This document shows, piece by piece, positions 3,357 to 62,231 of a stretch of DNA of 64,000 nt; the stretch's first letter is position 1; the number at the start of each line of letters is the position of its first letter. The position numbers were made by a program, and so were the translations under genes. This stretch comes from an uncultured Candidatus Berkelbacteria bacterium (lineage in GTDB: Bacteria > Patescibacteriota > UBA1384 > XYA2-FULL-43-10 > CAINNR01). Where the stretch lies: NCBI GenBank assembly GCA_903851235.1, contig CAINNR010000032.1:25-64024 (forward strand), given 5' to 3'. A model generated the notes under the pieces. That model did not search any database. It saw only the letters and a program-made list of their open reading frames with translations, and was not told where the DNA came from.

Positions 3357-3404
3357 TAAGTACAAATCGTTACGCTTGCATTATAGCATACTTTTAAAAA
3401 AAAG

Positions 3405-4217: not shown

Positions 4218-4493
4218 AGGCTTAAATCATTAACTCCTCCAGTATAGCACACTTCTTGCAAAAAGTCAATGAGTCTGTATATATTTTTATCGCTCTGACA
4301 TTTTTTCTATTACTATTATATCAAATCCCCTACAGATTATCCCTTTGATCCATTAGTAAATAGTAATAGAGCAAAGGAGTAAATCGTAAAGCGGGCAAAA
4401 ATTATAAAAAAAATGAAAAAAACGGGAATTACCGAGTCAAGTAGTTAGAACAGGTAACTTTAGTCGGGGTGTTGCATGATTCATAAGTTCTCC

Positions 4494-34663: not shown

Positions 34664-34693
34664 TCAAAAAAAGACGGCCAGTGGTCGGCCGTC
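34664..34693 (-). terminator. Intrinsic terminator of the 34692-35453 gene.
   Basis: gacggccgaccactggccgtc followed by tttttttt on the minus strand. Confidence 0.6.
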
Positions 34694-35453: not shown

Positions 35454-35542
35454 GATTTTATTTTTTTGTCAAGATTTTCATTCACGATAATTAATTACCA
35501 ATAAAAAAAAGACGGCCAGCTTCGGCCGTCATTTGATAGTTG

Positions 35543-36235
35543 CTAGTGTTGTTCACCGCAAACTTTCGCTCTTGCCGCCTTTGTGGCGGTAAGTTTGTCA
35601 TCGATTTCTCGTGCAACTTCATCTGATATTTCCAAGAGTTCGTCAGCATTCAAAACGTCGTTCATGATTAAATCGCTGGGCCGAAAAAGTTCGAGGTGTT
35701 CAAGTTTTGCCGCTTCAATTTTTTGTAATTGAAGCTGTTGATCGGCAATTCTCTGGCGAAGATGTTTAATATCAGCTTCAACTTTTTCTAGCAATGCCTT
35801 GCGGGGAGTCTTCAAGCCTTCCAGAATCGCTCGATCAACCATAAGTGCTTTGATCCTGCTCTCCATTTTTGTGATTAGAGACTGAATTGATCTGGTGCAC
35901 TCATCGAATGAATCGGTTGAAACCTTGTTTTTTGCTCTAACGCGCCGTCCACCACGCCAAAGCTGAAACTTCCGCCAGCAGATTCGTGGGCTGAAGCGGA
36001 GGAGTTGGCGAAACAGCGGAGCAAGAACAAAGTCGTACAGCGCGATCTGGATAATTCCAGGAAAGATTATTAGCCAAAGGAAGCCTAACAACACGTCATA
36101 ATCAGGTGAAAAATCTATAAGGCCGCCATTGCCCCATATATTGCCTTTCTCTCTGACCGAAATATGCCGAAGCCACCATGCGGCAGCTGTCGCAACCAGC
36201 AACCAAATGGCTAATCCTGGCATCCACCAGACCAT
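35543..36235 (-). CDS. Membrane-anchored coiled-coil protein, hypothetical (paralog B).
   Basis: 'IIFPGIIQIALYDFVLAPLFRQLLRFSPRICWR'. Its own terminator at 35503-35530 resembles the paralog A terminator. Confidence 0.55.
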   Translation of the reverse strand: MVWWMPGLAIWLLVATAAAWWLRHISVREKGNIWGNGGLIDFSPDYDVLLGFLWLIIFPGIIQIALYDFVLAPLFRQLLRFSPRICWRKFQLWRGGRRVRAKNKVSTDSFDECTRSIQSLITKMESRIKALMVDRAILEGLKTPRKALLEKVEADIKHLRQRIADQQLQLQKIEAAKLEHLELFRPSDLIMNDVLNADELLEISDEVAREIDDKLTATKAARAKVCGEQH

Positions 36236-36328
36236 TACTACATCACCTCTCTCACTGAGATACTTAAGCCACTAAATATTAGCACGATTTTATTTTCTCG
36301 TCAAGATTTCTTTATCAAATTCTTGAAT

Positions 36329-37337: not shown

Positions 37338-37413
37338 GGGGTCGTAGTGTAGTGGTTATCACGTCTCCCTGTCACGGAGAAGATCGCCGGTTCGAGTCCG
37401 GTCGACCCCGCCA
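37338..37413 (+). tRNA. tRNA-Asp (anticodon GTC). It marks the left boundary of the cassette array.
   Basis: Acceptor ggggtcg/cgacccc, anticodon stem-loop tctcc-ctGTCac-ggaga, T-arm ccggt-tcgagtc-cggt, discriminator g, CCA. A TTGAAT-17-TAAAGT promoter lies upstream. Confidence 0.85.
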
Positions 37414-39744: not shown

Positions 39745-41175
39745 CTATGCCGAGGTGGCATGGGAATTGATCGTGTCATAGAGATTGTCGACCTTGCACT
39801 TGAAGAGGCCGGGGTCCTCTGTTAGTATCCACATCAGCTCAAGTACAGAGTCATGGATCTCCTCGCACTTGAAATGAGGCGAACGCAGGTCTCTCGTGGT
39901 CTGATAGTTCTCTCCTCGACAGTTGCCGGCACAGATATACCTGATATCGCAAGCCGCGCATTTTGGATTCATACTATCGATGTTCAGACTGCGAAGATCC
40001 GTCAGAATGGGGGATCCCTTCCAGATCTCAGCCAAACTATCGGTTTTCAGATTGCCCAGGCAGAAATCGGGGACCGCAGTATCGGCGCATGGGTACAGTG
40101 TGCCGTCCGGTTTAACGTAAACCGCTCGATTCGTACCGATTCCACAGCCGAAGCTTTTGACGCCTCCTGCGATTCCCATCACTTGGTTTGCGAAGGTCGA
40201 GTACATCATCAACTGCTGAAGTCGCTGATCATCTCGTATTGCTTCGAAAACCTTCCGGTAGAAATCCGCCAAAGGGACAGCAACGAGTTGTTGCTTCGTT
40301 TCGGCGCTGTTGCCTCGGCCTACATTCATCATGTTTAAACAGTTAAGGCCTTGGACTCCAAGAGAATCGACCAACTTGAGTGTTGGTCGGACCTCATCGA
40401 TATTGCCTGCGTGAATAAACATGTTGACGGCAACTGAGATCCCTGCGTCGCACAGTGCCTTGATGTTGTTGACTGTTGTAGTGAATGTTCCCTCTCCACG
40501 GATGTATTCGTGGCTCTCAGCCCGACATCCGTCAAGGGAAATCGACATTTTCAGCCGGGGATATTTCGCCAGTTGTTTGATATCTGCTGGCGCCAACAGA
40601 GTCGCATTGGTGTTCACTTGAGCGAAATAGCCATGGTTGTGAACATATTCAATCAGATCCATGGCATCGGGGCGGGTAAACAGCTCACCGCCGGTTAGGG
40701 CAACGCGCGATATGCCGTTTTCCCAGGGCATACTCGAAAGTTGATCGATAACTGCTTTGATTTCGACAGAAGTCATCTCGCCGGGGATCTTCTCTTTGGC
40801 CATGGCATAACACATTGCGCATTCCATGTTGCAGAGTTGAGTTGTGGCGATAACCAAGACATTTTCGACTTCATTGACTTGGAAATCCGGCTTATTCTCT
40901 TCGACATCAACCTTCTCACCATCTACTACCAGCACTCCAGCGGAGTGCAGCAGATCGATAGTTTCAGCGACGATGTCGCCAGCCTCCTCTGCTGAGAGTC
41001 CCAATTGGGTTCTGATCTTAGTGACAGCCACATCAGAGTTTCCACAAGCCAACGACTCAAGGATGAGGGCAATCTCCGCCGTTGCAGAGAACCAGTAGGG
41101 TGCTGAGGGAAAGATCACGACTGCTGATTCTTCCCTGAAATAGACCGATGGTTTTTCGGTGAATGCCAACTGCAT
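39745..41175 (-). CDS. Cassette 4: radical SAM enzyme with a C-terminal SPASM domain and a ~110-aa N-terminal extension (a possible RiPP recognition element). Likely a peptide-modifying maturase. GC-rich.
   Basis: 'CNMECAMC' (CxxxCxxC) and C-terminal 'CAACDIRYICAGNCRGENY'. RBS GGGAGA lies before ATG at 41175. Confidence 0.8.
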   Translation of the reverse strand: MQLAFTEKPSVYFREESAVVIFPSAPYWFSATAEIALILESLACGNSDVAVTKIRTQLGLSAEEAGDIVAETIDLLHSAGVLVVDGEKVDVEENKPDFQVNEVENVLVIATTQLCNMECAMCYAMAKEKIPGEMTSVEIKAVIDQLSSMPWENGISRVALTGGELFTRPDAMDLIEYVHNHGYFAQVNTNATLLAPADIKQLAKYPRLKMSISLDGCRAESHEYIRGEGTFTTTVNNIKALCDAGISVAVNMFIHAGNIDEVRPTLKLVDSLGVQGLNCLNMMNVGRGNSAETKQQLVAVPLADFYRKVFEAIRDDQRLQQLMMYSTFANQVMGIAGGVKSFGCGIGTNRAVYVKPDGTLYPCADTAVPDFCLGNLKTDSLAEIWKGSPILTDLRSLNIDSMNPKCAACDIRYICAGNCRGENYQTTRDLRSPHFKCEEIHDSVLELMWILTEDPGLFKCKVDNLYDTINSHATSA

Positions 41176-41239: not shown

Positions 41240-41332
41240 CTACTGGCCCCGGTAGTACATCGTCCCTTGTGACTCCTTAGTCAAGACGACGATACGACGA
41301 TTGCCACGGTTCAAAATCCGAAACTTCCGCAT
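41240..41332 (-). CDS. 30-aa candidate RiPP precursor peptide (MRKFRILNRGNRRIVVLTKESQGTMYYRGQ). It is not in the supplied ORF track.
   Basis: A strong SD (AGGAGGagcgtcATG) and a TTGACA promoter on the minus strand at ~41408. It lies directly upstream of the radical-SAM/SPASM gene and is separated from it by an attenuator hairpin. Confidence 0.55.
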   Translation of the reverse strand: MRKFRILNRGNRRIVVLTKESQGTMYYRGQ

Positions 41333-41478
41333 GACGCTCCTCCTGTCAGATGGTGTAAGCTGTCGAAACAGCTTCACTATTATTATTAACATACTTTTTT
41401 TACTTTTGTCAACAGCATCGAGTAAATCTGATAACTTTATGAGGATATTTTTATTAATTTTTATGCTAAAATTTGATT

Positions 41479-42153
41479 ATGAATTGGAAAATTTATAAAA
41501 CACAACATTATACTTTTCACTACTTCTCAGGAACTTTGGCAGAAAAGGAAATTGAGAAAATAGCGGATGAACAGGAAGCGTTTTATCGTCATATTTTGTC
41601 GTAACTAAATTTGAAAAATGAGCGTACCATAAACTATTTTTTATATCCAGCGAATCAACTAAAGGGTGAAATAATGGGCGATGATGGTAATGGCAATACT
41701 AATCGAGAAAAATTTGAAGTCTACGCTGTCTACAATGAAAATATAAAATGTATTGGTGCGCATGAAGATACTCATCTCCTATCTCTTCCATTGGGATTGG
41801 CAACTAAACTATTTCGAGAAGGCCTGGCAGAGTTTATGAGTAAAGAATGACATGGAAAAACTCATGATTTTTGGGCTAAAAAATTTCTGAGTGAAAAAAA
41901 GATTCCTGGACTAGCGAAAATTTTAGATGATAAAGAGGGGGATAAAATCAGCGACTTAATTTCTTATCCTTGCGCCGGCTCTTTTTACATATTTTTAATA
42001 TCTAAAATTGGTAAAGGTATTTTTTTAAAACTTTATGGAGCCCTAGACCGAAATATAAATGTTGAAATAAACTTAGTAACAATTAAAGATATCACAAGTA
42101 AATCTTTAGACCAGTGGCAAAAAGAATGGGCAGAAAAAGTGTTGTACCAGTAA
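41479..42153 (+). pseudogene. Cassette 5: decayed gene. One continuous frame is interrupted by TAA (41602-41604) and TGA (41848-41850).
   Basis: My translation reads MNWKIYKTQHYTFHYFSGTLAEKEIEKIADEQEAFYRHILS*LNLKNERTINYF...AEFMSKE*HGKTHDFWAKKF...KVLYQ* in a single frame. No boundary element separates it from cassette 4. Confidence 0.5.
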
Positions 42154-42200
42154 AATATCTGCCTCTTGTTCATCAACTAGTCCAACCTTAGGGAGCCATA

Positions 42201-42297
42201 CAAAAAGTTCTAACTTCCCCCGCTGTGTTCCGCCATTGAAAAAGTCTCTCTGGAAGAGATTATTTTTGTATACGGCAGACTGGATATAGAACTTTTG
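42201..42297 (+). repeat. Boundary element E5.
   Basis: caaaaagttctaacttcccccgctgtgttccgccattgaaaaagtctctctggaagagattatttttgtatacggcagactggatatagaacttttg. Confidence 0.8.
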
Positions 42298-42414
42298 TTT
42301 TTAAACGTAAAACTTCGGATTGGATTTGAAACGAAATGTATGGGCTATTGTCCAAGAGGTCGTCATCATGTACAGATGTTTGACAAAACTGTTGATTGCC
42401 AATAGACTTAGACT

Positions 42415-42756
42415 ATGAAAACAATCGAAGACAAAATAAGTATCAAAGATTTGCAGGAGATGGCAGAAAAGATGTTCGGCAATTTGGTTAAAGCGGTAAT
42501 TGACATAGAGAAAGAGGCGATGGTCGTTGACGCCGAGCTTTATTCAGACGAGGAAGCGGTTCTAATTGAAAACGGATCAAAACAAAAAGATCTTTGGGGA
42601 ATAAATATCTATCCAAATTTACCCAAAGCCGACCAAATTGAATTTGATTCAATGATTAATTTGCGACCAAAACAGAACAACAGAAGCCGGAGTGTTGATG
42701 ATCCAAAAATCAGAGAAATAATACTAAAAATTTGTGATAAATTAATCAAACAATGA
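42415..42756 (+). CDS. Cassette 6a: hypothetical protein, first gene of a two-gene cassette; leaderless.
   Basis: 113 aa. TTGACA-17-TAGACT promoter with the ATG six nt after the -10. Confidence 0.5.
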   Translation: MKTIEDKISIKDLQEMAEKMFGNLVKAVIDIEKEAMVVDAELYSDEEAVLIENGSKQKDLWGINIYPNLPKADQIEFDSMINLRPKQNNRSRSVDDPKIREIILKICDKLIKQ

Positions 42757-43082
42757 CATATGAACATCAAAATTTGGCCGAAGGCAAGTGGAATAAAATT
42801 CCATTTTTTGAGCAGATGGCTAATATCGGAAGTGAGGTTTTTCGCACAATCAGTTGGAAGAAAAAAAACATTGATTATTCAAATAAAGCTTTTGACAGAA
42901 CTCTCGAACTACTGGATATGACGATTGAAGATTCTAAAAATCGAGGACGACTAAAAGAATTAGTTCGTTTGCGTGAAGTCCTGACCGATTATTTTGTCTT
43001 TGACAATGAGTACAAATCAAATGATGAATTATGGCAGAAGTATTTTTACGCGTTCAATTATGTCGCTAGAATAAATTGTTAG
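42753..43082 (+). CDS. Cassette 6b: hypothetical protein, start overlapping 6a (ATGA).
   Basis: 109 aa, translationally coupled to 6a. Confidence 0.5.
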   Translation: MTYEHQNLAEGKWNKIPFFEQMANIGSEVFRTISWKKKNIDYSNKAFDRTLELLDMTIEDSKNRGRLKELVRLREVLTDYFVFDNEYKSNDELWQKYFYAFNYVARINC

Positions 43083-45460: not shown

Positions 45461-45498
45461 CAACAACAAGGAGGACGGACATCAGTTGTTCGTCTTCC

Positions 45499-45549
45499 CC
45501 CTCAACACATTAAGTGTTCTGATGAGTCGTTGAAATTACGACGAAAGGG
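45499..45549 (+). ncRNA. Hammerhead ribozyme (type III, open helix III), copy 1.
   Basis: CCCU-C|AACAC-auuaa-GUGUU-CUGAUGA-G-UCG-uugaaauua-CGA-C-GAAA-GGG. All core nucleotides are present. Helix I is a 5-bp hairpin, helix II is 4 bp closed by the conserved G10.1-C11.1 pair, and helix III is CCCU/AGGG. The predicted cleavage is after C at 45503. Confidence 0.75.
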
Positions 45550-45554
45550 ATAAA

Positions 45555-47913: not shown

Positions 47914-47966
47914 TAAGCACAACAACAGAGGGGATTCACTAAGAGGGTACGAAGTTGTACTCTCCC

Positions 47967-48017
47967 CCCTCAACATTAAATTGTTCTGATGAGTCGTTGA
48001 AAATTACGACGAAAGGG
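47967..48017 (+). ncRNA. Hammerhead ribozyme (type III), copy 2.
   Basis: CCCU-C|AACA-uuaaau-UGUU-CUGAUGA-G-UCG-uugaaaauua-CGA-C-GAAA-GGG. Helix I is 4 bp; in copy 1 a compensatory change makes it 5 bp. Confidence 0.75.
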
Positions 48018-48021
48018 ATAA

Positions 48022-48712: not shown

Positions 48713-48762
48713 AGTGTCGGCGACACGGGGACTTACCCAAATGGGCACGACCTGTGCCCATT

Positions 48763-48813
48763 CCCTCAACATTAAATTGTTCTGATGAGTCGTTGAAAAT
48801 TACGACGAAAGGG
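48763..48813 (+). ncRNA. Hammerhead ribozyme (type III), copy 3.
   Basis: CCCU-C|AACA-uuaaau-UGUU-CUGAUGA-G-UCG-uugaaaauua-CGA-C-GAAA-GGG. It is preceded by the terminator-like hairpin gggcac-gacct-gtgccc. Confidence 0.75.
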
Positions 48814-48818
48814 ATGAG

Positions 48819-50813: not shown

Positions 50814-52088
50814 ATGAATCGATCGATCTCAGTAATTGGCTTGGGATATGTTGGCTTACCGCTTGCAATCTTGGCGGATCAGAAAAACTATCATGTAATA
50901 GGCATTGATACTGATCCTAAAAAGATTGCATTGCTAAACAAAAAACTATCACCTTTCCATGATAAAAAAATATCCAAGGATTTAAAAACTAGCGGTATCA
51001 TTGCCAGCCAAGATTATAATAATATCCAAAAATCTTCGATTATAATAATATGTGTTCCCACTCCGGTGAATGATGATCATACTCCAAACCTTAGCCCGGT
51101 TATAAATGCCTGCAAATCACTAGCTCCTTTTTTGCAAAAAGGCCAATTAATCATCCTTGAATCAACTGTTAATCCCGGCGTATCAGAAGATATCGTTCTG
51201 CCAATCTTAGAAAAAATATCAGGATTAAAGTGCGGGCCGGATTTTTCACTGGCTCACTGTCCAGAGAGAATCAACCCAGGTGATAAGAAATGGACTGTTG
51301 AGAATATTCCTAGAGTTATCGGCGCAACGGATGAAACCGGGTTGAAAAGAGCAGCTGAATTCTATCGCTCAATCATCAAAGGTGAAATAAAAGAAATGAA
51401 AACTATCAAAGAAGCAGAGGCTGTAAAAGTGGTTGAAAATTCATTTCGTGATATAAATATTGCTTTCGTCAATGAGCTCGCGATGTCTTTTGACAACCTG
51501 GGTATTGATGTCGTTAATGTCATCAACGGTGCCGCTACCAAACCCTTCGCCTTTATGGCCCACTACCCCGGTTGTGGAGTCGGTGGACATTGTATTCCGG
51601 TTGATCCATACTATCTTATTGAGTACGCTAGAAAGCATGGCTTTCAAAACGACTTTTTGTTGATGGCTCGTAATGTAAATAACAAAATGCCAAAATATAC
51701 TGCTGACAAAGTTTCTGATGAATTAAACCAAAAGAAGATAGCAATCAATGGCACCAAAGTCGCCGTATTGGGTTTGTCGTATAAATCAAATGTTGGTGAT
51801 GATCGGGAAAGTCCGTCATACAAAATCATACAAAATCTCGAAAAACTTGGCGCTGAAGTTGCCAGTTTCGACTCATATATTCCAGACAAATCCAGCGCTA
51901 GCACTCTGGAAGACGCTATCAACGGGGCCAAAGCGGTTGTAATTGCGACCTGCCATAAGGAATTTAGGAAGTTGACGCCAGAATATCTACGATCGTCTGG
52001 AATTGAAGTTGTAGTTGATGGGCGGAATTGCTTAAGTAAGGAGATTTTTTCCAGCTCTGGAATTATATATAAAGGTATTGGGCAGTAA
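50814..52088 (+). CDS. Nucleotide-sugar dehydrogenase (UDP-glucose/GDP-mannose dehydrogenase family).
   Basis: 'ISVIGLGYVGLPLAILADQ' Rossmann N-terminus and the catalytic-Cys region 'GGHCIPVDPYYL'. Confidence 0.85.
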   Translation: MNRSISVIGLGYVGLPLAILADQKNYHVIGIDTDPKKIALLNKKLSPFHDKKISKDLKTSGIIASQDYNNIQKSSIIIICVPTPVNDDHTPNLSPVINACKSLAPFLQKGQLIILESTVNPGVSEDIVLPILEKISGLKCGPDFSLAHCPERINPGDKKWTVENIPRVIGATDETGLKRAAEFYRSIIKGEIKEMKTIKEAEAVKVVENSFRDINIAFVNELAMSFDNLGIDVVNVINGAATKPFAFMAHYPGCGVGGHCIPVDPYYLIEYARKHGFQNDFLLMARNVNNKMPKYTADKVSDELNQKKIAINGTKVAVLGLSYKSNVGDDRESPSYKIIQNLEKLGAEVASFDSYIPDKSSASTLEDAINGAKAVVIATCHKEFRKLTPEYLRSSGIEVVVDGRNCLSKEIFSSSGIIYKGIGQ

Positions 52089-52091
52089 ATA

Positions 52092-53486
52092 ATGAATCTT
52101 TTATTCTCCAAAATTTCTCAGATATTAGACAAATTAATACGAAAAGAGGAAAAGCTCCGGCTTATTCCGCATTTTATTGTTATCTGTATTTTTACATTTC
52201 TAATTGCTAAAGTAGTTTTCAGGTCACCTACTTCCAATACAATATTATTTACTTATGGGATCACGGTCACATCAATATTATTTATGACTTTTACCGTCGC
52301 ATTTATCTTCTACAGGGATCCTTATGAAAAAGCTATGAAGGAAGCTAAAAAACTTTCCAAAATGGCGGACCCATTGGTTAGTTGCATGGTTGCAGTATTT
52401 AATGAAGAAAAAATTATTGAACAATGTGTTTTGTCAATTGTAAATCAAACATATCAGAATAAGGAAGTCATCTTCGTAAATGATAAAAGTACTGATAAAA
52501 CCGGCAAAATTCTCGATCGACTTGAAAAAAAATACAACTTCCGAACAATCCATCTGAAACAGAATCTTGGCAAGAAAGGTGCGCTTGCTCGCGCATGTCA
52601 TGAAGCAAAAGGCGATATACTGGCTTTTTCCGATAGTGATTCAATATGGGCCCCTGATGCGATAGAAAAAATTGTACCAATTTTTAAACACGACTCAAAA
52701 GTGGGGGCAGTTAGCGGTCATACACTGGCATTAAATGCCACTAAAAATCTACTCACAAGAGTCCAAGATTCCTGGTACGAAGGTCAATACTCCATCAGGA
52801 AAGCGTTTGAAAGTGTTTTCGGATGTGTAACTTGTGTTTCAGGTCCCCTAGCCGTTTTTCGTAGAGAAAGTATTTATAATTATATACCGGCATGGGAACA
52901 TGATAAGTTTTTGGGTCAACCATTTCGCTTTGCTACCGATCGAACTCTGACCGGCTTTGTCCTGGGTAGTAAATATATTAGTAAACGCATAAAGAAGAAA
53001 TACGCTACATCACCATTTATGAGCATTGATTATCCAGCGCAGGATTGGAAGATAGTATATTGCAAAGCTGCGCATGCCTGGACAGAAGTACCTGATACTT
53101 TTCGTGGGGTGATAAAACAACAAACGCGTTGGAAGAAGAGTTTTATCCGAAACATTTTTTTCACAGGCCGTTTCTATTGGCATAAACCACTTTTGCCTAC
53201 TCTGGTATATTACTTGCATATTGTCTTTGTTGTACTGGGCCCATTCGTTGTTTTTCGTCATCTAATTTACTTACCACTAAATGGAAATCTGTATTCAATG
53301 TTTCTCTACTTGGCTGGTATCTGTTTTATCGGTTTAATGTTCGGATTGGCAATAAAGCTTGAAGATCCAAAATCTCACCGTTGGATTTATCGACCGCTTA
53401 TGAGTCTGTTTTCAACACTGGTTTTGTCATGGCTTATTTTTTATTCAGCCTTAACTATCCGCAAGATGTTTTGGTCAAGGAATTAG
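52092..53486 (+). CDS. Processive family-2 glycosyltransferase (cellulose/chitin/hyaluronan-synthase-like), membrane-embedded.
   Basis: 'VAVFNEEKIIEQCVLSIVNQTY', 'VNDKSTD', 'FSDSDS', 'QQTRWKKSF' (QxxRW motif). Flanking TM helices. Confidence 0.8.
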   Translation: MNLLFSKISQILDKLIRKEEKLRLIPHFIVICIFTFLIAKVVFRSPTSNTILFTYGITVTSILFMTFTVAFIFYRDPYEKAMKEAKKLSKMADPLVSCMVAVFNEEKIIEQCVLSIVNQTYQNKEVIFVNDKSTDKTGKILDRLEKKYNFRTIHLKQNLGKKGALARACHEAKGDILAFSDSDSIWAPDAIEKIVPIFKHDSKVGAVSGHTLALNATKNLLTRVQDSWYEGQYSIRKAFESVFGCVTCVSGPLAVFRRESIYNYIPAWEHDKFLGQPFRFATDRTLTGFVLGSKYISKRIKKKYATSPFMSIDYPAQDWKIVYCKAAHAWTEVPDTFRGVIKQQTRWKKSFIRNIFFTGRFYWHKPLLPTLVYYLHIVFVVLGPFVVFRHLIYLPLNGNLYSMFLYLAGICFIGLMFGLAIKLEDPKSHRWIYRPLMSLFSTLVLSWLIFYSALTIRKMFWSRN

Positions 53487-53487
53487 T

Positions 53488-56400
53488 GTGAAAATCTTAC
53501 ACTTGAGAAAATTGGAAAAAAAAGCGAAGAAAATTAATAAAAGCAGCGCCAAAAAAGTAAGGCGTTTCTTTCGGAGACCTTCAACTCGCTGGATTGAAGT
53601 TGGAGTTTTTATTTTGTTGCTGCTTATATTCATCATAAAAACCACAAACTACATACATTGGGATGTCTTGAGTCCAGCACATGTTGCAGACTCGATTAAG
53701 AAAACTTTTGTACTAACAAAAAGAGATATTGCTGAGTTAAAATACTTCAAAAAATGTCCGGAAGGAGAGATTAAGGTCGATATCGGTATGAGCTATCTAT
53801 GTAGAGGTGAAACTAGCCCCGGCGTAGACCAAAAGATATATGATACATATCCAATCCACGGTAATGGCCGTGAGATAATTTATCCTTCGCTCGATGATGG
53901 CGATATTCAATCAGCTAATGACTTTGTAAACAACAAAATTGATATCAGTCGATATGATACGGTGTCATTGCCAGATGACCCTCAGTGGGATGAAGACCCA
54001 TATAATGATCGTTATTGGCGTATGAACTATTACAGTTTACGTCCAGTACTGGATCTGCTCTATGCCAGTAGAACAACCCACGACCCAAAGTACAACGATA
54101 AACTAATTACGACAGTTAATAGTTTTGTCACCACCGGCATAAACCGGCCTGACAGCTGGGATGATGCCCATGCAGTTGCTTTCCGGACAATGGCTCTTAC
54201 GGATATTTGGTGGAAAATGCGTGAGGAGCGAATACTTTCTATCGACGAAAGTAACAAGCTGCTAACTGCCCTCGAACAGCATGGTGAATATTTAGCGGAT
54301 CGTAATCATTATGACCCGGGGCAAAACCATGGGACAAACGAAGCAGCGGCGTTATACCTTCTGGCAAATAGTTTTCCTGATCTTCCCGGCTCATCAGGCT
54401 GGCTTAGCGTATCACAAGACAGGATCAATACCAGCATGGATAATCTTATCGATCAAGATGGTGCTTTAACTGAGAACTCTCCTTATTATCATTTCTACAC
54501 ATTACAAAAGTACTGGGATATTTACCAATATTCCAATCAACAGCGGCAGTATTTTAATCCAGAGTTTAAAAATAAACTCTACCAGATGATCTCTTATGCT
54601 ACGTATATCTTACAGCCTGATGACAGCCCCCCTCTCTTAGGGGCTTCACTGCAAACAATAATCAATAAGCATGCTGAATATGGTGAAATGGCTGCGATAG
54701 ATCCGCAATTTTTATATGTTCTTACTCAGGGCAAAAAAGGCAAAAAACCGAAGAATCTTAACAAATTCTATTCTGACACCGGTCAAACCATTATGCGTTC
54801 TGGCTGGGGTATGGGTGATGAGTTTATTAACCAGACTCAACTAATTTATGATGTAGGAGCTTATCGCACGGATCACAGCGATTACGACGCATTGAGTTTT
54901 TCTTTGTACTCAAACGGGATAACGCTTCTGCCTGATTCTGGTTTGTGTACATATGCCCCGGGACCTTACCGTGATTATTTTCATGGTACCGCCGCCCATA
55001 ATACCGTAGTAGTGGATGACAAAGACCAGGCAACGGGTTCAGCTTCGGCTGGTGATTTTGTGACGAATAAAGATTATACCCTGCAGACTGCTCAGCATCA
55101 GCTATATGCGGGCGTAACCCATGAACGCAGCATAATCATGCTGGATAAGTCACACAGCTTGATTATTGATAAGCTGATTTCGGAACAGGTTCATAATTAC
55201 AAGCAAATGTTTCATCTATTTCCAGGTGCTGTCTTTAGTAAAGATGGTTTAACCGTTAAGGGAGTGGGGGATAACCCAGAACAATCCATAACCGTCCAAC
55301 AGTTAAAGACAGATGGTATTACAGAGTCAGATTCTATCAATCAGACTTCTCCACCAGCTGGCATATGCTCAGAGGAGTACAATAGATACGTCCCGTGCGA
55401 ATCGGTTGCCTATAGCCAAAATGGAAAAGATGCTTATTTTGTGACTTTGCTAACCATCGGTAGTGGGGACCCGCAATTCCATGCAACATTAAGTGCAGAC
55501 CAATCAGAAATCACTATTGATCAAAACCACAAACATCTCAATTTCAAAGTCGGCCAGACTGAACAAAAAGCTGAAGTAATAAGGGCAACTGACCCTAAAG
55601 CCCCCGACTTCGCAAAAAACTCTGTGGCGGGATTTGACGACCTAAATAACTGGACTAGCGATCTTGGCACTCTCTCAAAAGATTCAACCTCTGGGGCGGT
55701 GTCTCTTCAACTAGCCGGTACAACAAAAGATCAAACAATGGAGAATAATAAGGTAAATATTGATTTATCTCACGCAAACATGGCGGTGCAAATGCGCATC
55801 ACGAATAGAGTAAACGTAAAAGATTTTGAACTGTCTCTATCTAATAATCACTGGTCAACTTTTGCCACAAACAATATTGATTATGCCTACGGTGCTGATT
55901 ATTATGGAGAATGGATCAACATTTCTCTCGGCAAAGGTACAGAAAGAGACAGGAATGGTCATTGGTCAATAAGTGGCCAATTCGATTGGGGCAAAATCGA
56001 TGGAGTGCGTCTAAAAATCACGGGGAAAGAAAATAGCAACAGTACCGTAGAGTTGGGATCTCTCTACACCACTCCAGAGCAGCAGCAGGGTGGAGTGGTT
56101 ATTGTCTTTGACGATGGTTACGATTCTGTTTTACCGGCAGCTGATTATCTCCGCCAACTGAATCTCAAAGCGAACATCGCTGTAATTGCCAAAGATGTTG
56201 TGACGCCCACGAGAGGATATCTTGGGTTAAATGACCTCAAGAATCTTCAGAATCAATTTGGCTGGAACATTGCAAGCCACTCCTATGATCACGTTGATGC
56301 CGTTCAAGCATATTTTCAGACGGGCGAACTGGATCAATACCAAGCAGATATTCTTGCTGGGGCAAAGTTTCTTTCAGATAATAAAATCGATAGTGCTCCC

Positions 56401-56919
56401 AATTGGTTTATATACCCTCACGGAACCACCAACAGTGCATTAAAAGCTGTAGTAAGTAAATACTACAAGTTTGCCAGAGTTACGACTAATGAGCCCGAGG
56501 TTTATCCTTTCGGTGACCCTTATCTTGTCAAAACTATGTCTGTGCAAAATAATTCGGATGGCTCTGAAGATATAGCTGATCAAAAGGTTGCAACAACGCC
56601 TGATGATGTTGCAAAAGCTGTTAGCGATGCTAAAAACTTTAAGACCACTTTATTCCTAACTTTCCACCGTATCCACTCTAAGCCATCAGACAGGCCAGGT
56701 TATGAGCTGACCGATTTTAAAAAAATCGCCGATAACCTTAAGCAGCAAAATATTTCAGTTTTAACACTTAGTGATCTAGACAAGCAAAATGGTGTTCCGC
56801 TTGATAATAAGATTATTTTTGGCGATAATAAACCTGCACAGTTGTCAATAGAGGTACAAGTTACATCAGACAGCATATTTAAAAGAATTAAAAGCTTATT
56901 CTCATGGCTAAAAATATAA
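53488..56919 (+). CDS. Large membrane-anchored fusion protein: a heparinase II/III-like (polysaccharide lyase or epimerase fold) domain plus a C-terminal NodB-type polysaccharide deacetylase.
   Basis: 1143 aa. N-terminal TM; 'DDAHAVAFRTMALTDIWW'; 'NHGTNEAAALYLLANSF'; C-terminal 'VVIVFDDGYDSVLPAADYL...IASHSYDHVD' (NodB motifs 1-3). Confidence 0.65.
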   Translation: MKILHLRKLEKKAKKINKSSAKKVRRFFRRPSTRWIEVGVFILLLLIFIIKTTNYIHWDVLSPAHVADSIKKTFVLTKRDIAELKYFKKCPEGEIKVDIGMSYLCRGETSPGVDQKIYDTYPIHGNGREIIYPSLDDGDIQSANDFVNNKIDISRYDTVSLPDDPQWDEDPYNDRYWRMNYYSLRPVLDLLYASRTTHDPKYNDKLITTVNSFVTTGINRPDSWDDAHAVAFRTMALTDIWWKMREERILSIDESNKLLTALEQHGEYLADRNHYDPGQNHGTNEAAALYLLANSFPDLPGSSGWLSVSQDRINTSMDNLIDQDGALTENSPYYHFYTLQKYWDIYQYSNQQRQYFNPEFKNKLYQMISYATYILQPDDSPPLLGASLQTIINKHAEYGEMAAIDPQFLYVLTQGKKGKKPKNLNKFYSDTGQTIMRSGWGMGDEFINQTQLIYDVGAYRTDHSDYDALSFSLYSNGITLLPDSGLCTYAPGPYRDYFHGTAAHNTVVVDDKDQATGSASAGDFVTNKDYTLQTAQHQLYAGVTHERSIIMLDKSHSLIIDKLISEQVHNYKQMFHLFPGAVFSKDGLTVKGVGDNPEQSITVQQLKTDGITESDSINQTSPPAGICSEEYNRYVPCESVAYSQNGKDAYFVTLLTIGSGDPQFHATLSADQSEITIDQNHKHLNFKVGQTEQKAEVIRATDPKAPDFAKNSVAGFDDLNNWTSDLGTLSKDSTSGAVSLQLAGTTKDQTMENNKVNIDLSHANMAVQMRITNRVNVKDFELSLSNNHWSTFATNNIDYAYGADYYGEWINISLGKGTERDRNGHWSISGQFDWGKIDGVRLKITGKENSNSTVELGSLYTTPEQQQGGVVIVFDDGYDSVLPAADYLRQLNLKANIAVIAKDVVTPTRGYLGLNDLKNLQNQFGWNIASHSYDHVDAVQAYFQTGELDQYQADILAGAKFLSDNKIDSAPNWFIYPHGTTNSALKAVVSKYYKFARVTTNEPEVYPFGDPYLVKTMSVQNNSDGSEDIADQKVATTPDDVAKAVSDAKNFKTTLFLTFHRIHSKPSDRPGYELTDFKKIADNLKQQNISVLTLSDLDKQNGVPLDNKIIFGDNKPAQLSIEVQVTSDSIFKRIKSLFSWLKI

Positions 56920-57731
56920 AAATATCGGCAATAGTTTTATTAATAATTATTGCGACCGTGGCCATAGGCAGCCTCTATTATTATCTGCATCGGACGAAAC
57001 AGGTTGATAAGAATAGTCAGACCCTGTTTCTTGATAAACTTGATGGATCTGACCGCCTAGTCACCAACGAGTATGTGTATTGGAATCCTAACTCAACTTG
57101 TCCGTATAAATCAGATAAGTGGGATATGACAAGCGGCACACTGCTGATCAAAAATGGAGTTGGTTATTCAGGGCTGCCTAACAAAGAGAGCCGATCTGTA
57201 TGTGAATCAAATAATCAAACAAATTCTTATACTTTTAGGCTTAATACCAAAGATGCTAGCTTCACTAACACAGTTACATCTCTAGATTACGAAATGCTCA
57301 AACATGGTGATGCTTCCAGTAATACCGAAAATTCCTATGACGGTTTACATATTTGGGTTCGATACCAAAGCCAATATGCGCTCTATGCAGTATCAATTAG
57401 TCGATGGGATGGTAACTTAGCGATTAAAAAGAAGGTACCCGTAGAGATAGCTCACTGCAGCGATCCATCAAATGAAGGCTGCTATTATGATCTTGTTAGT
57501 CAAGTCAATCGACCCGATCTTACAAAATCTGCTGTATGGCATCATGCAGACATCACCACTGAGGATAGATCGGATGGCAAACTTCAGATTAAATTAGTTA
57601 TAGATGGTCAGACCGCTCTTGAAGCAACCGATGGTGGTGAACATGATTCTGTTTATCACACTGGTGCAGTTGGTGTACGCGGAGACAACACAGAATTTTA
57701 CTTTAAAAATTTTTTGGTTAAAAAAACCTAA
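56904..57731 (+). CDS. Membrane-anchored secreted protein, hypothetical (a possible concanavalin/LamG-like carbohydrate-binding or lyase fold).
   Basis: N-terminal TM; a beta-rich sequence; its start overlaps the upstream gene. Confidence 0.45.
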   Translation: MAKNIKISAIVLLIIIATVAIGSLYYYLHRTKQVDKNSQTLFLDKLDGSDRLVTNEYVYWNPNSTCPYKSDKWDMTSGTLLIKNGVGYSGLPNKESRSVCESNNQTNSYTFRLNTKDASFTNTVTSLDYEMLKHGDASSNTENSYDGLHIWVRYQSQYALYAVSISRWDGNLAIKKKVPVEIAHCSDPSNEGCYYDLVSQVNRPDLTKSAVWHHADITTEDRSDGKLQIKLVIDGQTALEATDGGEHDSVYHTGAVGVRGDNTEFYFKNFLVKKT

Positions 57732-57857
57732 AGAGCCAGATATCGATCTCAACAACGGCAAAAATTGGGCACTTAATTTAAAAGTTACAGATGTTGGCAA
57801 TGGTTTTGCTGGGCTCCAGTAATTAAACTATTAATTCTTCTGACCGGAAGATCAGAA

Positions 57858-57925
57858 AAGGTCTAAACTTCAATCGCTATGCTCCTCCATAATATAAAAT
57901 AGCCGTTTGGGCTTTTTTGTTTAGT
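57858..57925 (+). repeat. Boundary element E22 (degenerate right half).
   Basis: ggtctaaacttcaatcgctatgctcctccataatataaaatagccgtttgggcttttttgtttag. Confidence 0.6.
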
Positions 57926-57981
57926 TTCAGTTTTGTCCTGTGCTACAATGTAATTAAGAATAACTATTATCGGAGGGCGGA

Positions 57982-60516
57982 ATGTCTATGTTTTGGTTTG
58001 TGTTGCCGATTTTTGCTCTACTAGTAGCTATAGTCCGCAAGGATTTGCGCTTCCAAATGTTTTTGGCCGCCGTACTTTCAATTCCGATATTGATAATTAA
58101 ACCCCTAACCGATCCGAATTTTTTGCAAATAATAGCCGGTCTCGATCTAATAATTTTCTTTGCTGCTAGATTAATTATTGTTGCCTCATTTGCAGCCCTG
58201 GCGGCTGCGGTTTATGAACTATTTTTTCATAATAAAATTTCTCCTGTCCCGCACTCACAACGACCACGACTGCTCTGGTTGCTGAGTGGTCTTTTGTTCT
58301 TGGCTATATTGCTACTTTTGGGTCAAAGCTTTATTGTCGCTATTTTGGCGGCACTTTTGGTTGATCTGATAATAGTGATAATACTGCGCCCCGGTTTGAT
58401 TTGGGATGTCATCTTCTCCGGATTTTTCATGGGGTTTTTATATCTTTTTATTTATTTAATTGCATTTCGCGGTTTCCCCGGCGGACTAAATAATATTTGG
58501 TTTACGGATAGACTTTCCGGTCTAACGCTTTGGTCGCTGCCGGTTGAGGAGCTTCTGGCTGTGGTTTTGTTTGGTGCACTCGTTGGTCCGCTCTACACTG
58601 CAATTAAAACTTTAAAACTGCCAACTAAAATTATCCCATCAGAAGTCTCCGAAAAGAAGCTTGCAAATCCTAAAGTTATTTTTGGTTGGTTGATAATAGT
58701 TTTTTCTTTGCTTGCAATTTTGTTTGGGGCTTATTATTTTGTGATTCCACCGAAGGTCTCTACTTCAACGCCAAAAAATAGTACTTCCAGTGTTGGTTTG
58801 GTTGATGACATCGGTCTTAAATTCAACAAACCAATAAATCGTGATGTCATAAATTTTTCAATTCTACCAGACGTTTCCGGAGTCTGGCATTTTTCCAACG
58901 GAACATTGGCTAATCATTTATTTAGCCAAGCAAATTTTACGCCGGACAAACCACTTGCGGCAGAACAAGAATATACGATTAAAGTCACTAATATCCGTAA
59001 TTTAATCAATACTTCTTCCGGTGCCGATTTTCAATTTTCTTTCCGAACTGAGAGTTTGCCGAAAATCGATCATGCATCAATTGCCGATGGACAAACTGGT
59101 GTGATGCTAAATGATCCGATTAATATTTATTTGAGTCAGAAAAATAATAAAGTCGTAGATTTTAATTTCAAATTTGATCCAGCCGTTGATTTTACACCGT
59201 CAATTTCGGCTGATGGAATGCAGTATACTCTAAAATTAAACCAGCCGCTGACTCAAGGCGCAGTTTACAAATTAACGACGCTTGGTTGGATTTTGCCTGG
59301 TGCTGGAAATCCGGCCCCAGACGCTAATTGGCAAATGGCTTTTACCACAAAAGAGCCGCCAGCGCTTGCCAGTTACACCCCTCAAGGCAGTGGAATTTTG
59401 ACTGACAGTGGAAATATCACTTTGAATTTTGTTCAACCAATGGTTCAAGATGATGTATTGGGTCATATTTCAATTACTCCGGAGATAAAAGGCAGTTGGA
59501 AATGGCAGACTTCGACGAAACTGGTTTACAGCATCAACCAAAAATTATCGTTTGCTACCGGATACACAATTTTAATTGCTAAAGGTGTCCACGATCAATC
59601 GGGCGGTTTTATTGATAATGATATCAAAGCCACTTTTACTACTATCGGGAGTGTTCAAGTCAGTATTTTTTCGCCGAAAAACGCTGGTAGTAATGTCGCT
59701 ACCGATGCAAAAATATCAATTACTTTTGATCAGGCAGTTGACCACGGTTCAGCCGAGCGTGCTTTTTCAGTTTCACCGACTCTAAGTGGCAATTTTTCTT
59801 GGAGCGGTAATAAGATGATTTTTTCTCCCGATGGATTAAAGAAAGATTCGACTTACAATATCAATCTCGCGGCCGGCATCAAAAGTATCTCCGGTCTTGA
59901 TTCGAACAAAATCTTTTCCGCCAGTTTTTCCACTATTACCAGTTCTATTATTCTAAATATTGGAATTGATTATCAGGACCAGGCGCTTTCCTGCGAAGCG
60001 GCGTCGCTGAAAATGGCACTGAACTACCGTGGTGTCGGCGTGACTGAAAACGATATCATGGCTCGAATCGGTTACGACCCAACAATCCGAAATGGCAACA
60101 TTTGGGGTAATCCGAATAATGCTTTTGTCGGCAGTATTAACGGTCGGCAAGATACTACCGGCTATGGTGTTTACTGGCAGCCGATTGCCAGGGCTGCAAA
60201 TGTTTGGCGATCGGCAATTGCTTTTTCCGGCTGGTCGCCAAGCCAAATTGCCGGAGCGATCGCCGACAATAATCCGGTTATTTTGTGGGGAACTTACGGC
60301 AACGCTTCGCGTGATGATTGGCAAACGCCGGACGGCCAGCATATTCTCGCTTGGAAGGGAGAACATGCCAGAACAATTATCGGTTTTTTGGGCACAGCTG
60401 ACAACCCTACTAGCTTTGTTATCAATGATCCTGTCGCCGGACGAATAACCTGGACCGCTGCCCAACTTGCCGGTAACATGTCAGCTTTCGCTGGTAGCGG
60501 AGTCGTAGTTTATTGA
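57982..60516 (+). CDS. Large membrane protein: an N-terminal polytopic domain, bacterial Ig-like repeats and a C-terminal C39-like (Peptidase_C39_2) domain.
   Basis: 844 aa. Repeated Big-like '...S.S..I.I.F...V' segments. The C-terminal 'YQDQALSCEAASLKMALNYRGVGVTENDIMARIGYD' carries a catalytic Cys context. An extended -10 (TGcTACAAT) lies upstream. Confidence 0.6.
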   Translation: MSMFWFVLPIFALLVAIVRKDLRFQMFLAAVLSIPILIIKPLTDPNFLQIIAGLDLIIFFAARLIIVASFAALAAAVYELFFHNKISPVPHSQRPRLLWLLSGLLFLAILLLLGQSFIVAILAALLVDLIIVIILRPGLIWDVIFSGFFMGFLYLFIYLIAFRGFPGGLNNIWFTDRLSGLTLWSLPVEELLAVVLFGALVGPLYTAIKTLKLPTKIIPSEVSEKKLANPKVIFGWLIIVFSLLAILFGAYYFVIPPKVSTSTPKNSTSSVGLVDDIGLKFNKPINRDVINFSILPDVSGVWHFSNGTLANHLFSQANFTPDKPLAAEQEYTIKVTNIRNLINTSSGADFQFSFRTESLPKIDHASIADGQTGVMLNDPINIYLSQKNNKVVDFNFKFDPAVDFTPSISADGMQYTLKLNQPLTQGAVYKLTTLGWILPGAGNPAPDANWQMAFTTKEPPALASYTPQGSGILTDSGNITLNFVQPMVQDDVLGHISITPEIKGSWKWQTSTKLVYSINQKLSFATGYTILIAKGVHDQSGGFIDNDIKATFTTIGSVQVSIFSPKNAGSNVATDAKISITFDQAVDHGSAERAFSVSPTLSGNFSWSGNKMIFSPDGLKKDSTYNINLAAGIKSISGLDSNKIFSASFSTITSSIILNIGIDYQDQALSCEAASLKMALNYRGVGVTENDIMARIGYDPTIRNGNIWGNPNNAFVGSINGRQDTTGYGVYWQPIARAANVWRSAIAFSGWSPSQIAGAIADNNPVILWGTYGNASRDDWQTPDGQHILAWKGEHARTIIGFLGTADNPTSFVINDPVAGRITWTAAQLAGNMSAFAGSGVVVY

Positions 60517-61400
60517 CACCAATATTAATTTATAGTACAGTAAGGATTAAGCAAATCAATCAAAAAAAACAAATGGATAATAACGATAATTCTATTGGGA
60601 GAGAAGAAATCAAAACTTTTGGCGATTATTATTACCGGCCAAAAGCTAAACGCAATTCCTGGTTGAAAATTACCGGGCTGATTTTGCTTGTCGCAATTTT
60701 TCTTGGCGCTGGTTACTATGGGTATCGTCGTTGGCGTTCAAATAGATTAACAGAGAATAACTCCATTGTCGATGTTCCGGTGATAGAAAAGCCAGCCATT
60801 GTCTCGCCGTCAAATCCGGTTATCACACCAGCGGCAATTCCGGCTTCCGGTATGCTTATCGTACCATTTACGACTCAAGCGCCGTTTGCCAATTGGGATG
60901 CCACACACGAGGAGGCTTGTGAAGAAGCCAGTTTAATTATGCTTCATCATTATCAAAACGGAACTGCGATTGACTCCCCAACTTCGGCCGACAAAGAGAT
61001 TTTGGATTTAATCAGTTGGGAAACCGATAATGGTTATGGTGTTGATGTTACACTTGAACAACTTTCTGATATTGCCAGACGGTATTATGGTATGAGCAGT
61101 GGCCGAATTATTACCGATGTTACTACCGACACGATCAAAAAGGAGATCTCGGCCGGTCATCCGATAATTATACCGGCTGCGGGAAAAATCCTGCCGAATC
61201 CGAATTTCCGCGATGGCGGTCCAAACTATCACATGCTGGTTATAATCGGATATAATCAAACAGACTTTATCACCAACGATCCCGGTACCAGAAATGGCCA
61301 AAATTTTCACTATACTTACGATGGTCTCTTAAATGCTGTCCATGATTGGAACCCTGACAATATTCTTAACGGTCCAAAAGAACTCCTAGTTTTTGACTGA
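60513..61400 (+). CDS. Membrane-anchored C39-like peptidase domain protein.
   Basis: 'FTTQAPFANWDATHEEACEEASLIMLHHY' (Cys) ... 'HMLVIIGYN...DP' (His). The start may be ATG at 60573. Confidence 0.6.
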   Translation: MTPILIYSTVRIKQINQKKQMDNNDNSIGREEIKTFGDYYYRPKAKRNSWLKITGLILLVAIFLGAGYYGYRRWRSNRLTENNSIVDVPVIEKPAIVSPSNPVITPAAIPASGMLIVPFTTQAPFANWDATHEEACEEASLIMLHHYQNGTAIDSPTSADKEILDLISWETDNGYGVDVTLEQLSDIARRYYGMSSGRIITDVTTDTIKKEISAGHPIIIPAAGKILPNPNFRDGGPNYHMLVIIGYNQTDFITNDPGTRNGQNFHYTYDGLLNAVHDWNPDNILNGPKELLVFD

Positions 61401-61576
61401 AAATAGTATAATTGGTTATTTTTCGCAATAGTTTTAACTAAAGATTGTGATCAGTGCCCATTTAGAATTATATTAAGGCAAAGTTAGTTTGGAGATTGTT
61501 CGCCACTCCTCATCCCTAGAACATTAATATATTCTCTGCTCGGCGAGAATTGAAAAATATCTGCTACAATTAAACA

Positions 61577-62098
61577 ATGAAGAAAAAACTGCCACATAAA
61601 TTGGATGTCGGTTGCGCTTTCAGAAAACCTAAAGGTTATTGGGGAATCGATAAAGTCAAAGTTAAAGACGTTGATCAGTTTATTGACTTGTCCAAATTTC
61701 CTTGGCCGCTACCGGATAACCATTTTGAGGAAATCAGGGTTTGGCATATTTTACAATTTCTTCCGGATACGGTAAAAACAATGGAGGAAATTTGGCGGAT
61801 CGCTAAATCGGGGGCAAAAATAACGATTGGCGTTCCATATTATATGTCTGCATTGGCTTTTGGTGATCCAGCACACATTCGATATTTTACCGAAGAAACT
61901 TTCAAATTTTTTACCGATGATTCCTGGTATATTTCAAATCACAGCGCATATACTGTTGCAAAATTCAAAATTATCAAACAGAAATTGCGTACCACCGGCC
62001 GTTTACGCCGATTTTTACCTTTTAAGAGGTTCTTACGTTTTTTTGTTTGGAATTTGGTTGATGAACTGGTTATTGAGATGGAAGTAGAGAAACATTGA
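61577..62098 (+). CDS. Class I SAM-dependent methyltransferase-like protein.
   Basis: 'LDVGCAFRKPKGYWGIDK' (motif I) and 'GAKITIGVP'. Confidence 0.55.
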   Translation: MKKKLPHKLDVGCAFRKPKGYWGIDKVKVKDVDQFIDLSKFPWPLPDNHFEEIRVWHILQFLPDTVKTMEEIWRIAKSGAKITIGVPYYMSALAFGDPAHIRYFTEETFKFFTDDSWYISNHSAYTVAKFKIIKQKLRTTGRLRRFLPFKRFLRFFVWNLVDELVIEMEVEKH

Positions 62099-62117
62099 CG
62101 ATATAATAAGTTTTAAT

Positions 62118-62200
62118 TTTGTTCCGCTCTGCCCCATCAATAAAAAAGTAGCTCTGGTAGCTATTTTTTCTTTACAGCAGACAGGGTATAGAACTTTTGT
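62118..62200 (+). repeat. Boundary element E25.
   Basis: tttgttccgctctgccccatcaataaaaaagtagctctggtagctattttttctttacagcagacagggtatagaacttttg. Confidence 0.75.
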
Positions 62201-62231
62201 CTTCCTAGGTTGTTGAAGCGTAGCGAAACTA

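Follow-up and report, generated by a model that had tools for sequence, protein, structure and literature searches.

The window, as we call the whole stretch of DNA analysed here, comprises 64,000 nt of contig CAINNR010000032.1 from the assembly GCA_903851235.1, which represents an uncultured Candidatus Berkelbacteria bacterium of the Candidate Phyla Radiation (CPR, or Patescibacteria). Much of bacterial diversity belongs to this group, yet few of its members have been cultured and little is known of their envelope biology. We describe a pair of adjacent genes that the listing of open reading frames (ORFs) gives, on the same strand, as 57982–60516 (844 aa) and 60513–61400 (295 aa from a TTG start). 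The first, ORF1 (57982–60516, +), encodes a protein in which a bundle of seven transmembrane (TM) helices and a TM anchor are followed by four immunoglobulin (Ig)-like domains of the Big_5 family and a Peptidase_C39_2 domain. The second, ORF2, which we place at 60573–61400 (+; 275 aa from the ATG at 60573), encodes a signal-anchor and a second Peptidase_C39_2 domain. ORF1 is preceded by an extended −10 element (TGCTACAAT, 57941–57949, +) and by a Shine-Dalgarno motif, GGAGG (57972–57976), 5 nt ahead of its ATG, both read from the sequence as consensus matches only. No NCBIfam model matches either protein.

An earlier note on this DNA, made from the sequence alone, had both genes ending in papain-like C39_2-type domains, and Pfam bears this out. 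Peptidase_C39_2 (PF13529) is matched in ORF1 at 71.2 bits (aa 665–817, E 1.8e-19) and in ORF2 at 45.6 bits (E 1.3e-11), against a gathering cutoff of 24. We delimit the domain to 59944–60513 (aa 655–844, +) in ORF1, using Pfam, phmmer, Foldseek and residue conservation, and to 60849–61397 (aa 93–275, +) in ORF2. Conservation was read from alignments of 150 ORF1-type C-termini and 120 ORF2-type proteins. In ORF1, Q665 (59974–59976), C671 (59992–59994, in LSCEAASLKM), H795 (60364–60366, in EHARTIIGF) and D816 (60427–60429) are each kept in at least 144 of the 150 relatives. The corresponding residues of ORF2, Q102 (60876–60878), C116 (60918–60920, in EEACEEASLIM), H220 (61230–61232, in YHMLVIIGY) and D236 (61278–61280), are each kept in all 120. 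The Cys and His motifs singled out in the earlier note are therefore real and catalytic, and far from lacking a conserved dyad, both proteins keep the full Gln/Cys/His/Asp set. Both are apparently active papain-type (clan CA) cysteine peptidases, with Gln as the oxyanion residue, Cys as the nucleophile, and His and Asp completing the set.

The two peptidase domains are related, but only distantly. BLASTP between them gives no significant match, and recent tandem duplication is ruled out as the origin of the pair. Comparison of the two family alignments by hhalign, in contrast, gives a probability of 97.7% (E 2.5e-12) with Gln, Cys, His and Asp aligned. Profile–profile comparison thus shows the homology of the domains to be ancient: they are two old, anciently diverged subfamilies. 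The ORF2 type is marked by the motif HEEACEEAS and by 8 residues inserted between its Gln and Cys, the ORF1 type by an insert of about 24 residues that it has in common with 3ERV, the structure of a putative, YvpB-like C39-like peptidase from Bacillus anthracis.

Ahead of its peptidase head, ORF1 has the polytopic N-terminus that the earlier note had proposed. Hydropathy and AlphaFold2 (AF2) helices agree on a seven-helix membrane bundle (57982–58611, aa 1–210, +) and, after a Lys-rich loop, on an eighth TM helix (58663–58740, aa 228–253, +). The latter is the counterpart of the single anchor in shorter relatives, which align with ORF1 from about residue 230 on. The stalk that follows (58750–59937, +) consists of four Ig-like β-sandwich domains (aa 257–345, 348–440, 447–555 and 558–652), delimited from Pfam, AF2 strands and Foldseek. 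The Ig-like repeats of the earlier note are thus present, four in number, but their family was misjudged: Big_5 (PF13205) is matched above its cutoff in four stretches (E 1.5e-35, 122.5 bits), there is a weak Big_10 match besides, and neither Big_2 nor Big_3 gives an ORF1 match in Pfam at E ≤ 0.1.

The second half of the bundle (aa 120–206) resembles Lycopene_cyc (PF18916), the family of CrtYc/CrtYd-type membrane cyclases. In ORF1 the match (21.2 bits, E 4.4e-4) is below the cutoff of 27. Nearly the whole profile, however, matches the same region in 11 of 19 long-form relatives (E ≤ 0.01), and the cutoff is passed by two of them, P0129 (34.1 bits) and P0277 (31.3 bits). On account of these relatives, we take the sub-cutoff match in ORF1 to reflect real homology at the sequence level. 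The 7-TM module has no PDB sequence match and no NCBIfam match; a search with the 7-TM alignment matched at least four proteins, among them the split-gene form described below. In contrast to the known cyclases, the ORF1 bundle lacks a carotenoid gene context, with no carotenoid genes seen in the window or the related loci examined, and is fused or adjacent to what is predicted to be an extracellular peptidase.

The earlier note described the two genes as adjacent and overlapping. Adjacent they are, but the 4-nt overlap hinges on a doubtful TTG start at 60513. This TTG lies within a TTGACA hexamer, at the start of a promoter-like TTGACA-17-TACAGT match. The close ORF2 homologues are all 275 aa long and start at the equivalent of the ATG at 60573, and the gene calls of three related loci (L003, L004 and L005) have the small gene start 45–50 nt past the stop of the large gene. 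The true start of ORF2 is most likely the ATG, leaving a 56-nt spacer after ORF1, with the overlap an ORF artefact. The public NCBI call for ORF2 on this contig is the 295-aa form, which begins at the TTG, 20 codons (60513–60572) ahead of the ATG, and its start is probably mis-called by just that distance. Since the TTG belongs to the promoter-like match, ORF2 may have its own promoter.

Structure prediction returned papain folds for both proteins. The AF2 model of ORF2, built from a 58-sequence alignment, has a mean predicted local distance difference test (pLDDT) score of 88.3 and consists of a long N-terminal helix, a linker and an α/β domain. That of ORF1, from 19 sequences (mean pLDDT 83.7), has a helical bundle (1–210), a TM helix (228–253), β-sandwiches (257–652) and an α/β head. 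Both catalytic domains, as modelled, have a papain-like α/β fold. In a Foldseek search of the PDB, the ORF1 head superposes on 3ERV with a TM-score of 0.82 and a root-mean-square deviation of 2.6 Å; phmmer also finds 3ERV and pairs its Cys and His motifs with those of ORF1 (E 2e-9). The Ig repeats of ORF1 match S-layer proteins and the stalk domains A and B of the L,D-transpeptidase LdtMt2. ORF2 has no PDB match by sequence. Its best structural neighbours in the PDB are 3ERV, the phytochelatin-synthase-like Alr0975 in second place, and PeiR, followed by cathepsins, AvrRpt2 and staphopains. Among viral models, the best named neighbours of ORF2 are cyanophage lysozymes and endolysins, the endolysin of Gordonia phage OneUp and a tape-measure protein, and PHROG gives a weak endolysin-family match for ORF2 (3e-4) and none for ORF1. 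No phage or lysis-cassette context, such as a holin or structural genes, surrounds the pair, whose neighbours are cellular genes.

For both proteins the prediction is a membrane anchor with a catalytic domain on the outer side of the cell. In ORF1, the positively charged loops fit an N-out arrangement of the seven helices that hydropathy places in the bundle, with an in-to-out eighth helix after them. ORF2 would be held by a signal-anchor (60657–60722, aa 29–50 in the 275-aa numbering, +). The N-terminal tail of its family has a median length of 10 aa, and the residues ahead of the TM helix carry a net charge of +3.9, those behind it one of +0.8. It is because this bias fits the positive-inside rule that we read ORF2 as a signal-anchored protein with an outside catalytic domain.

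Membrane anchoring and a wide distribution in CPR had both been anticipated in the earlier note, and both hold, the former as a prediction. A word-indexed search found more than 1,200 homologues of ORF2, mostly in Patescibacteria and called 'C39 family peptidase' or 'YvpB' where named. The family is present in 329 GTDB species representatives, from Berkelbacteria, Saccharimonadia, Moran-, Kuenen-, Peregrini-, Buchanan- and Uhrbacteria. ORF2-type sequences of different CPR classes are 45–60% identical and share 26 invariant columns, a degree of conservation that suggests one conserved substrate. For ORF1, an exhaustive HMMER search gave 401 cluster representatives (50% identity) at E ≤ 1e-30, a few of which are giant proteins sharing Big_5 repeats only. 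Most relatives of ORF1 are 620–700 aa long and have one TM helix, Big_5 and C39_2; the 7-TM bundle is found in about a dozen of the best 150, and these are 830–875 aa long.

Beyond the window, the large gene is next to the small one in L003 (65% identity), L004 (68%) and L005 (38%, a short form), and again in L008 (a 440-kb contig), L012/L014, L018 and L066. Wherever gene calls exist, the flanks of the pair are unrelated between contexts. Some relatives show the parts of ORF1 in other combinations. In two metagenome-assembled genomes of 'bacterium ADurb.Bin400' (L012/L013) the 7-TM module is a separate gene of 219 aa, just upstream of a short-form large gene, which the small gene follows. L040 has a 7-TM gene and then a gene for a TM helix and Big_5 without a catalytic head, directly before the small peptidase. 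These arrangements show the membrane bundle, the Ig stalk and the small peptidase to be linked through gene fusion and fission. In three further relatives (P0206, P0260 and P0273) the scaffold of 7-TM bundle and Big_5 is kept and C39_2 is replaced by Peptidase_M14; the sole NCBIfam match of P0260 and P0273, well short of the cutoff (about 1e-7), is to the murein tripeptide amidase MpaA.

The small gene has a recurrent context of its own. In about 8–11 of 80 GTDB loci it follows uvrA, bactofilin and a DAGK-like gene and precedes infC-rpmI-rplT, all in one block, and bactofilin is found in its neighbourhood in L006, L010, L018 and L022. In L018 the whole pair lies inside this core block, in the order uvrA, bactofilin, DAGK-like gene, pair, infC. 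At such a frequency, the bactofilin and DAGK-like context is a hint, not a rule. As a separate observation, on a 600–800-kb Patescibacteria contig (L006/L007, 6754–8238), an RVT_1 reverse transcriptase and a bAvd accessory gene, together hallmarks of a diversity-generating retroelement, adjoin the 3′ end of the small C39_2 gene.

The pair is a new architectural variant inside a known peptidase family, and its novelty is modest. The ORF1 head is like 3ERV in sequence, fold and insert, but proteins of the 3ERV/YvpB type are small and secreted and have neither the 7-TM bundle nor the Big_5 stalk. ORF2, with its 8-residue Gln–Cys insert, is a divergent subtype. Classical C39 domains (PF03412), such as the peptidase domains of ComA and PCAT1, are cytoplasmic, are fused to ATP-binding cassette (ABC) exporters and cut double-glycine leaders. 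They belong to the same clan and use the same Gln/Cys/His/Asp chemistry, whereas ORF1 and ORF2 are predicted to be extracytoplasmic, and PF03412 matches neither of them in Pfam. Nor is an ABC exporter or a double-glycine precursor fused to the pair or conserved beside it in the window or in eight related contexts. PeiR (a pseudomurein endoisopeptidase; 8Z4N, 8Z4H) and the C39_2 phage endolysins are fold neighbours of ORF2 at 16–22% identity and TM-scores of 0.4–0.5; unlike them, the window proteins are chromosomal, membrane-anchored, conserved in CPR and outside any lysis cassette. In overall layout ORF1 recalls LdtMt2 of Mycobacterium tuberculosis (4HU2, 8AHO), in which an Ig-like stalk joins a membrane anchor to a catalytic head that acts on the wall. 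The head of LdtMt2, however, is a YkuD domain on two Ig domains, while ORF1 has a papain-fold head, four Ig domains and an additional 7-TM bundle.

What might these enzymes do? We see about an even chance that they are envelope-located, membrane-tethered hydrolases that act on stem peptides or cross-links of the cell's own peptidoglycan, a reading in which we infer the extracytoplasmic topology, the physical cooperation of the two proteins and the peptidoglycan substrate. It draws on the endolysin and PeiR fold neighbours, the swap to an M14/MpaA-like head, the bactofilin neighbourhood, the conservation across CPR classes, and the listing of Peptidase_C39_2 as an endolysin catalytic domain in phages of Gram-positive hosts (PMC8223927). 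ORF2, on a signal-anchor and a linker of about 40 residues, would act close to the membrane. The ORF1 peptidase head would sit at the tip of a four-Ig stalk, rooted in the TM helix and the lycopene-cyclase-related seven-helix bundle, the stalk positioning it as the LdtMt2 stalk does its catalytic head. The two genes form a conserved chromosomal module of one Patescibacteria clade, in which bundle, stalk and small peptidase would work together, cutting peptide bonds of the wall at two different heights above the membrane as the cell grows or divides. As wall hydrolases, the enzymes would be candidate core autolysins of ultra-small CPR cells.

Several points weigh against this wall-hydrolase reading. 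Literature searches found no functional study and no biochemically characterised member of Peptidase_C39_2; 3ERV itself is only a 'putative' peptidase, and the endolysin assignments are annotations. The pointers to the cell wall are indirect, consisting of TM-scores of 0.4–0.5, sub-threshold hidden Markov model matches and a gene neighbourhood found at about 8–11 of 80 loci. Papain-fold enzymes also act on proteins, on glutathione-like peptides and even on glycosides (PMC13642728). Finally, the large gene is near the small gene in only about 6 of the 80 GTDB loci, and elsewhere the small gene is alone; the two proteins are therefore not universally dependent on each other.

One alternative is that the pair processes proteins, maturing or shedding secreted or surface proteins such as pilins, S-layer proteins or adhesin precursors, in the manner of leader removal by C39. 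Cleavage of leader peptides is what the wider C39 clan is chiefly known for (PMC7143001). The staphopains, AvrRpt2 and cathepsins among the fold neighbours of ORF2 cut proteins, and two relatives have weak matches to Peptidase_C39 (PF03412), though with no significant stretch. Yet there is no fusion to an ABC transporter and no conserved adjoining gene with a double-glycine leader, and the predicted site of the catalytic domains is extracellular, where those of C39 exporters are cytoplasmic. The M14/MpaA-like head swap and the endolysin neighbours also point to the wall instead, and we regard protein processing as rather unlikely.

The earlier note favoured a different role, that of adhesins and surface proteases of episymbionts. 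In its fuller form, this would have the Ig repeats act as an adhesin or spacer while the peptidases attack the wall or surface proteins of a host bacterium. Both families are indeed concentrated in CPR genomes, the surface-exposed architecture with Ig repeats would suit such a role, and the fold is endolysin-like. However, conservation is very high across CPR classes whose hosts are very different, and the genes lie among housekeeping genes (uvrA, bactofilin, infC, rplT). Both proteins, moreover, are membrane-tethered, and the short linker of ORF2 could hardly reach another cell. The adhesin or episymbiont-surface role is unevidenced, and the high conservation across classes argues for a housekeeping substrate; a host-directed function seems doubtful to us.

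It could also be that the papain triad is used here for other chemistry: transpeptidation or peptide ligation, γ-glutamyl transfer, or glycoside cleavage. The second-best PDB neighbour of ORF2, Alr0975, is a γ-glutamylcysteine transpeptidase, the stalk of ORF1 resembles that of a transpeptidase, and a C39-like archaeal protein is reported to hydrolyse β-galactoside analogues (PMC13642728). The fold similarity is modest (TM-scores of 0.4–0.5), though, and the replacement by M14 suggests a hydrolytic peptidase, so that we hold this to be very unlikely.

To return to wall hydrolysis, a more speculative extension, which we put forward tentatively and with little confidence, is that the module is a Patescibacteria-specific envelope machine. 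In it, a polyprenyl lipid, for instance lipid II or the undecaprenyl carrier, would be sensed or bound by the bundle, which would couple wall synthesis in the membrane to a controlled cutting of peptidoglycan peptides at two defined heights above it, possibly positioned by bactofilin. If true, this would be a previously undescribed control of wall remodelling in ultra-small bacteria that are without many canonical autolysin regulators. The fusion and fission of bundle and peptidase would in addition give an orphan lycopene-cyclase-like domain its first functional context outside carotenoid synthesis.

Downstream of the pair lies a methyltransferase-like gene (61577–62098, +; 173 aa, class-I-like) that is outside the conserved module. 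The earlier note's small methyltransferase is recognisable by PHROG (phrog_6636, methyltransferase, 2e-10) but falls short of the Pfam cutoff (17.9 bits against 21.2). Its extended −10 element, TGCTACAAT (61562–61570), is a 9-mer identical to that upstream of ORF1 at 57941. Because it is preceded by this −10 of its own, the gene is, as far as promoter motifs can tell, a separate transcription unit; the −10 is only 6 nt ahead of the ATG, which suggests a leaderless or near-leaderless mRNA. In no relative with examined gene calls is a methyltransferase-like gene next to the pair.

Pair and methyltransferase-like gene lie in a region (37338–62931) where about 15 repeated intergenic units form a one-directional array that starts at tRNA-Asp (37338–37413). 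Each unit is a copy of the 3′ end of tRNA-Asp with its native downstream flank: a box of the form GTTCTAAC..CGCTAT..CCGCCA, a terminator hairpin with a T-run, and a CAGACCGGATGCAGAAC box. A promoter of the TTGACA type, AACTATTGACA, often follows. Boxes of the type AGACNGRATRYARAAC (AGAC..GAAC) number 9, where chance would give 0.09, and every one is on the + strand (37456–62870). From 37.4 to 50.6 kb, the genes that the units set apart are mostly small, and there is no AGAC..GAAC box between 50644 and 62179. Of the boundary elements that the earlier note placed on either side of the pair, repeats do exist on both sides, but only one is complete. This is the downstream unit (62102–62205, +), which follows the methyltransferase-like gene with a tRNA-3′-like box, a terminator hairpin and a AGACAGGGTATAGAAC box, and has a TTGACA promoter-like site at 62232. 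The upstream unit (57856–57915, +), at the 3′ end of the neighbouring polysaccharide operon, is degenerate, with a tRNA-3′-like box, terminator hairpin and T-run but without the CAGACCGGATGCAGAAC box.

We conclude that the array units are repeated intergenic modules of a terminator, with or without a promoter. RNAalifold on 10 units predicts the 6-bp terminator hairpin as the only conserved structure; a long outer stem, in which the 5′ box would pair with the AGAC..GAAC box, was noticed by eye and is not predicted by RNAalifold. The array may have originated by serial integration at the tRNA or by the spread of an expression module. A scan of metagenomes for the 22-nt box gave three chance matches in GC-rich coding DNA with no tRNA nearby.

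The earlier note went further and took the pair and the methyltransferase to be carried together as a cassette. In its strongest form, the genes would be the cargo of a mobile, integron-like cassette bounded by array elements at tRNA-Asp, for which the position within a one-directional array, the excess of boxes, all on one strand, and the flanks of the pair, which in close relatives differ from those of the window and from one another, can be adduced. The pair, however, recurs in at least seven other Patescibacteria contexts without boxes or methyltransferase. None of 11 related loci examined has the boundary boxes, and in BLAST of the flanks against all 93 loci no relative is matched outside the same species, two contigs of which (L001 and L002) have a context identical to that of the window. 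The methyltransferase is unlinked to the pair elsewhere, and L018 has the pair in core synteny. Pfam matched no recombinase among the 26 window ORFs scanned, which did not include all small ORFs, and the structure of the unit is a terminator hairpin only, with no imperfect-palindrome recombination site. The pair matches the window in GC content (42.1% against 41.7%), only part of a unit is present at 57856, and the long stretch upstream of 62179 has no box. A mobile cassette is thus highly improbable, and we conclude that the pair is an ordinary conserved chromosomal module that happens to lie here; mobility is unsupported for these genes, a claim we do not extend to the whole array.

The array has two further features. 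Three candidate type III hammerhead ribozymes (RF00008) lie on the + strand at 45496–45552, 47964–48020 and 48760–48816, with scores of 40.6, 36.1 and 32.4 bits where the gathering score is 48.5; a search of 3.8 kb gave them E-values of 1.4e-6 to 2.8e-4. They appear only at a permissive threshold, tRNAs being all that Rfam finds at the gathering threshold, and have intact CUGAUGA...GAAA cores; each is directly 5′ of the tRNA-3′-like box that ends a small gene unit. Also inside the array is a radical SAM/SPASM maturase-like gene (39745–41175, −) with small ORFs nearby (41240–43082), one of them DUF5674. This region may be a locus of the type that makes ribosomally synthesised and post-translationally modified peptides (RiPPs).

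Directly upstream of the pair is a four-gene surface-polysaccharide operon (50814–57731) encoding a UDP-glucose dehydrogenase, a family 2 glycosyltransferase (GT2, chitin/hyaluronan-synthase-like), a 1143-aa fusion of heparinase II/III and polysaccharide deacetylase, and a TM-anchored protein of 275 aa that Pfam does not match. Elsewhere in the window, two adjacent paralogues with no Pfam match (34692–35453 and 35543–36235, within 34692–36309, −) are preceded by 70-nt sequences that are nearly identical (repeats D11 and D13, 86–91% identity). An intergenic segment of about 105 nt is duplicated at 3309–3413 and 4169–4274, 860 nt apart, with 79–91% identity (repeats D14 and D20). Finally, ORF 760–1236 contains three tandem copies of an 84-nt unit at 812–1147 (168-nt repeats, 78–100% identity), which therefore encode a 28-residue protein repeat.

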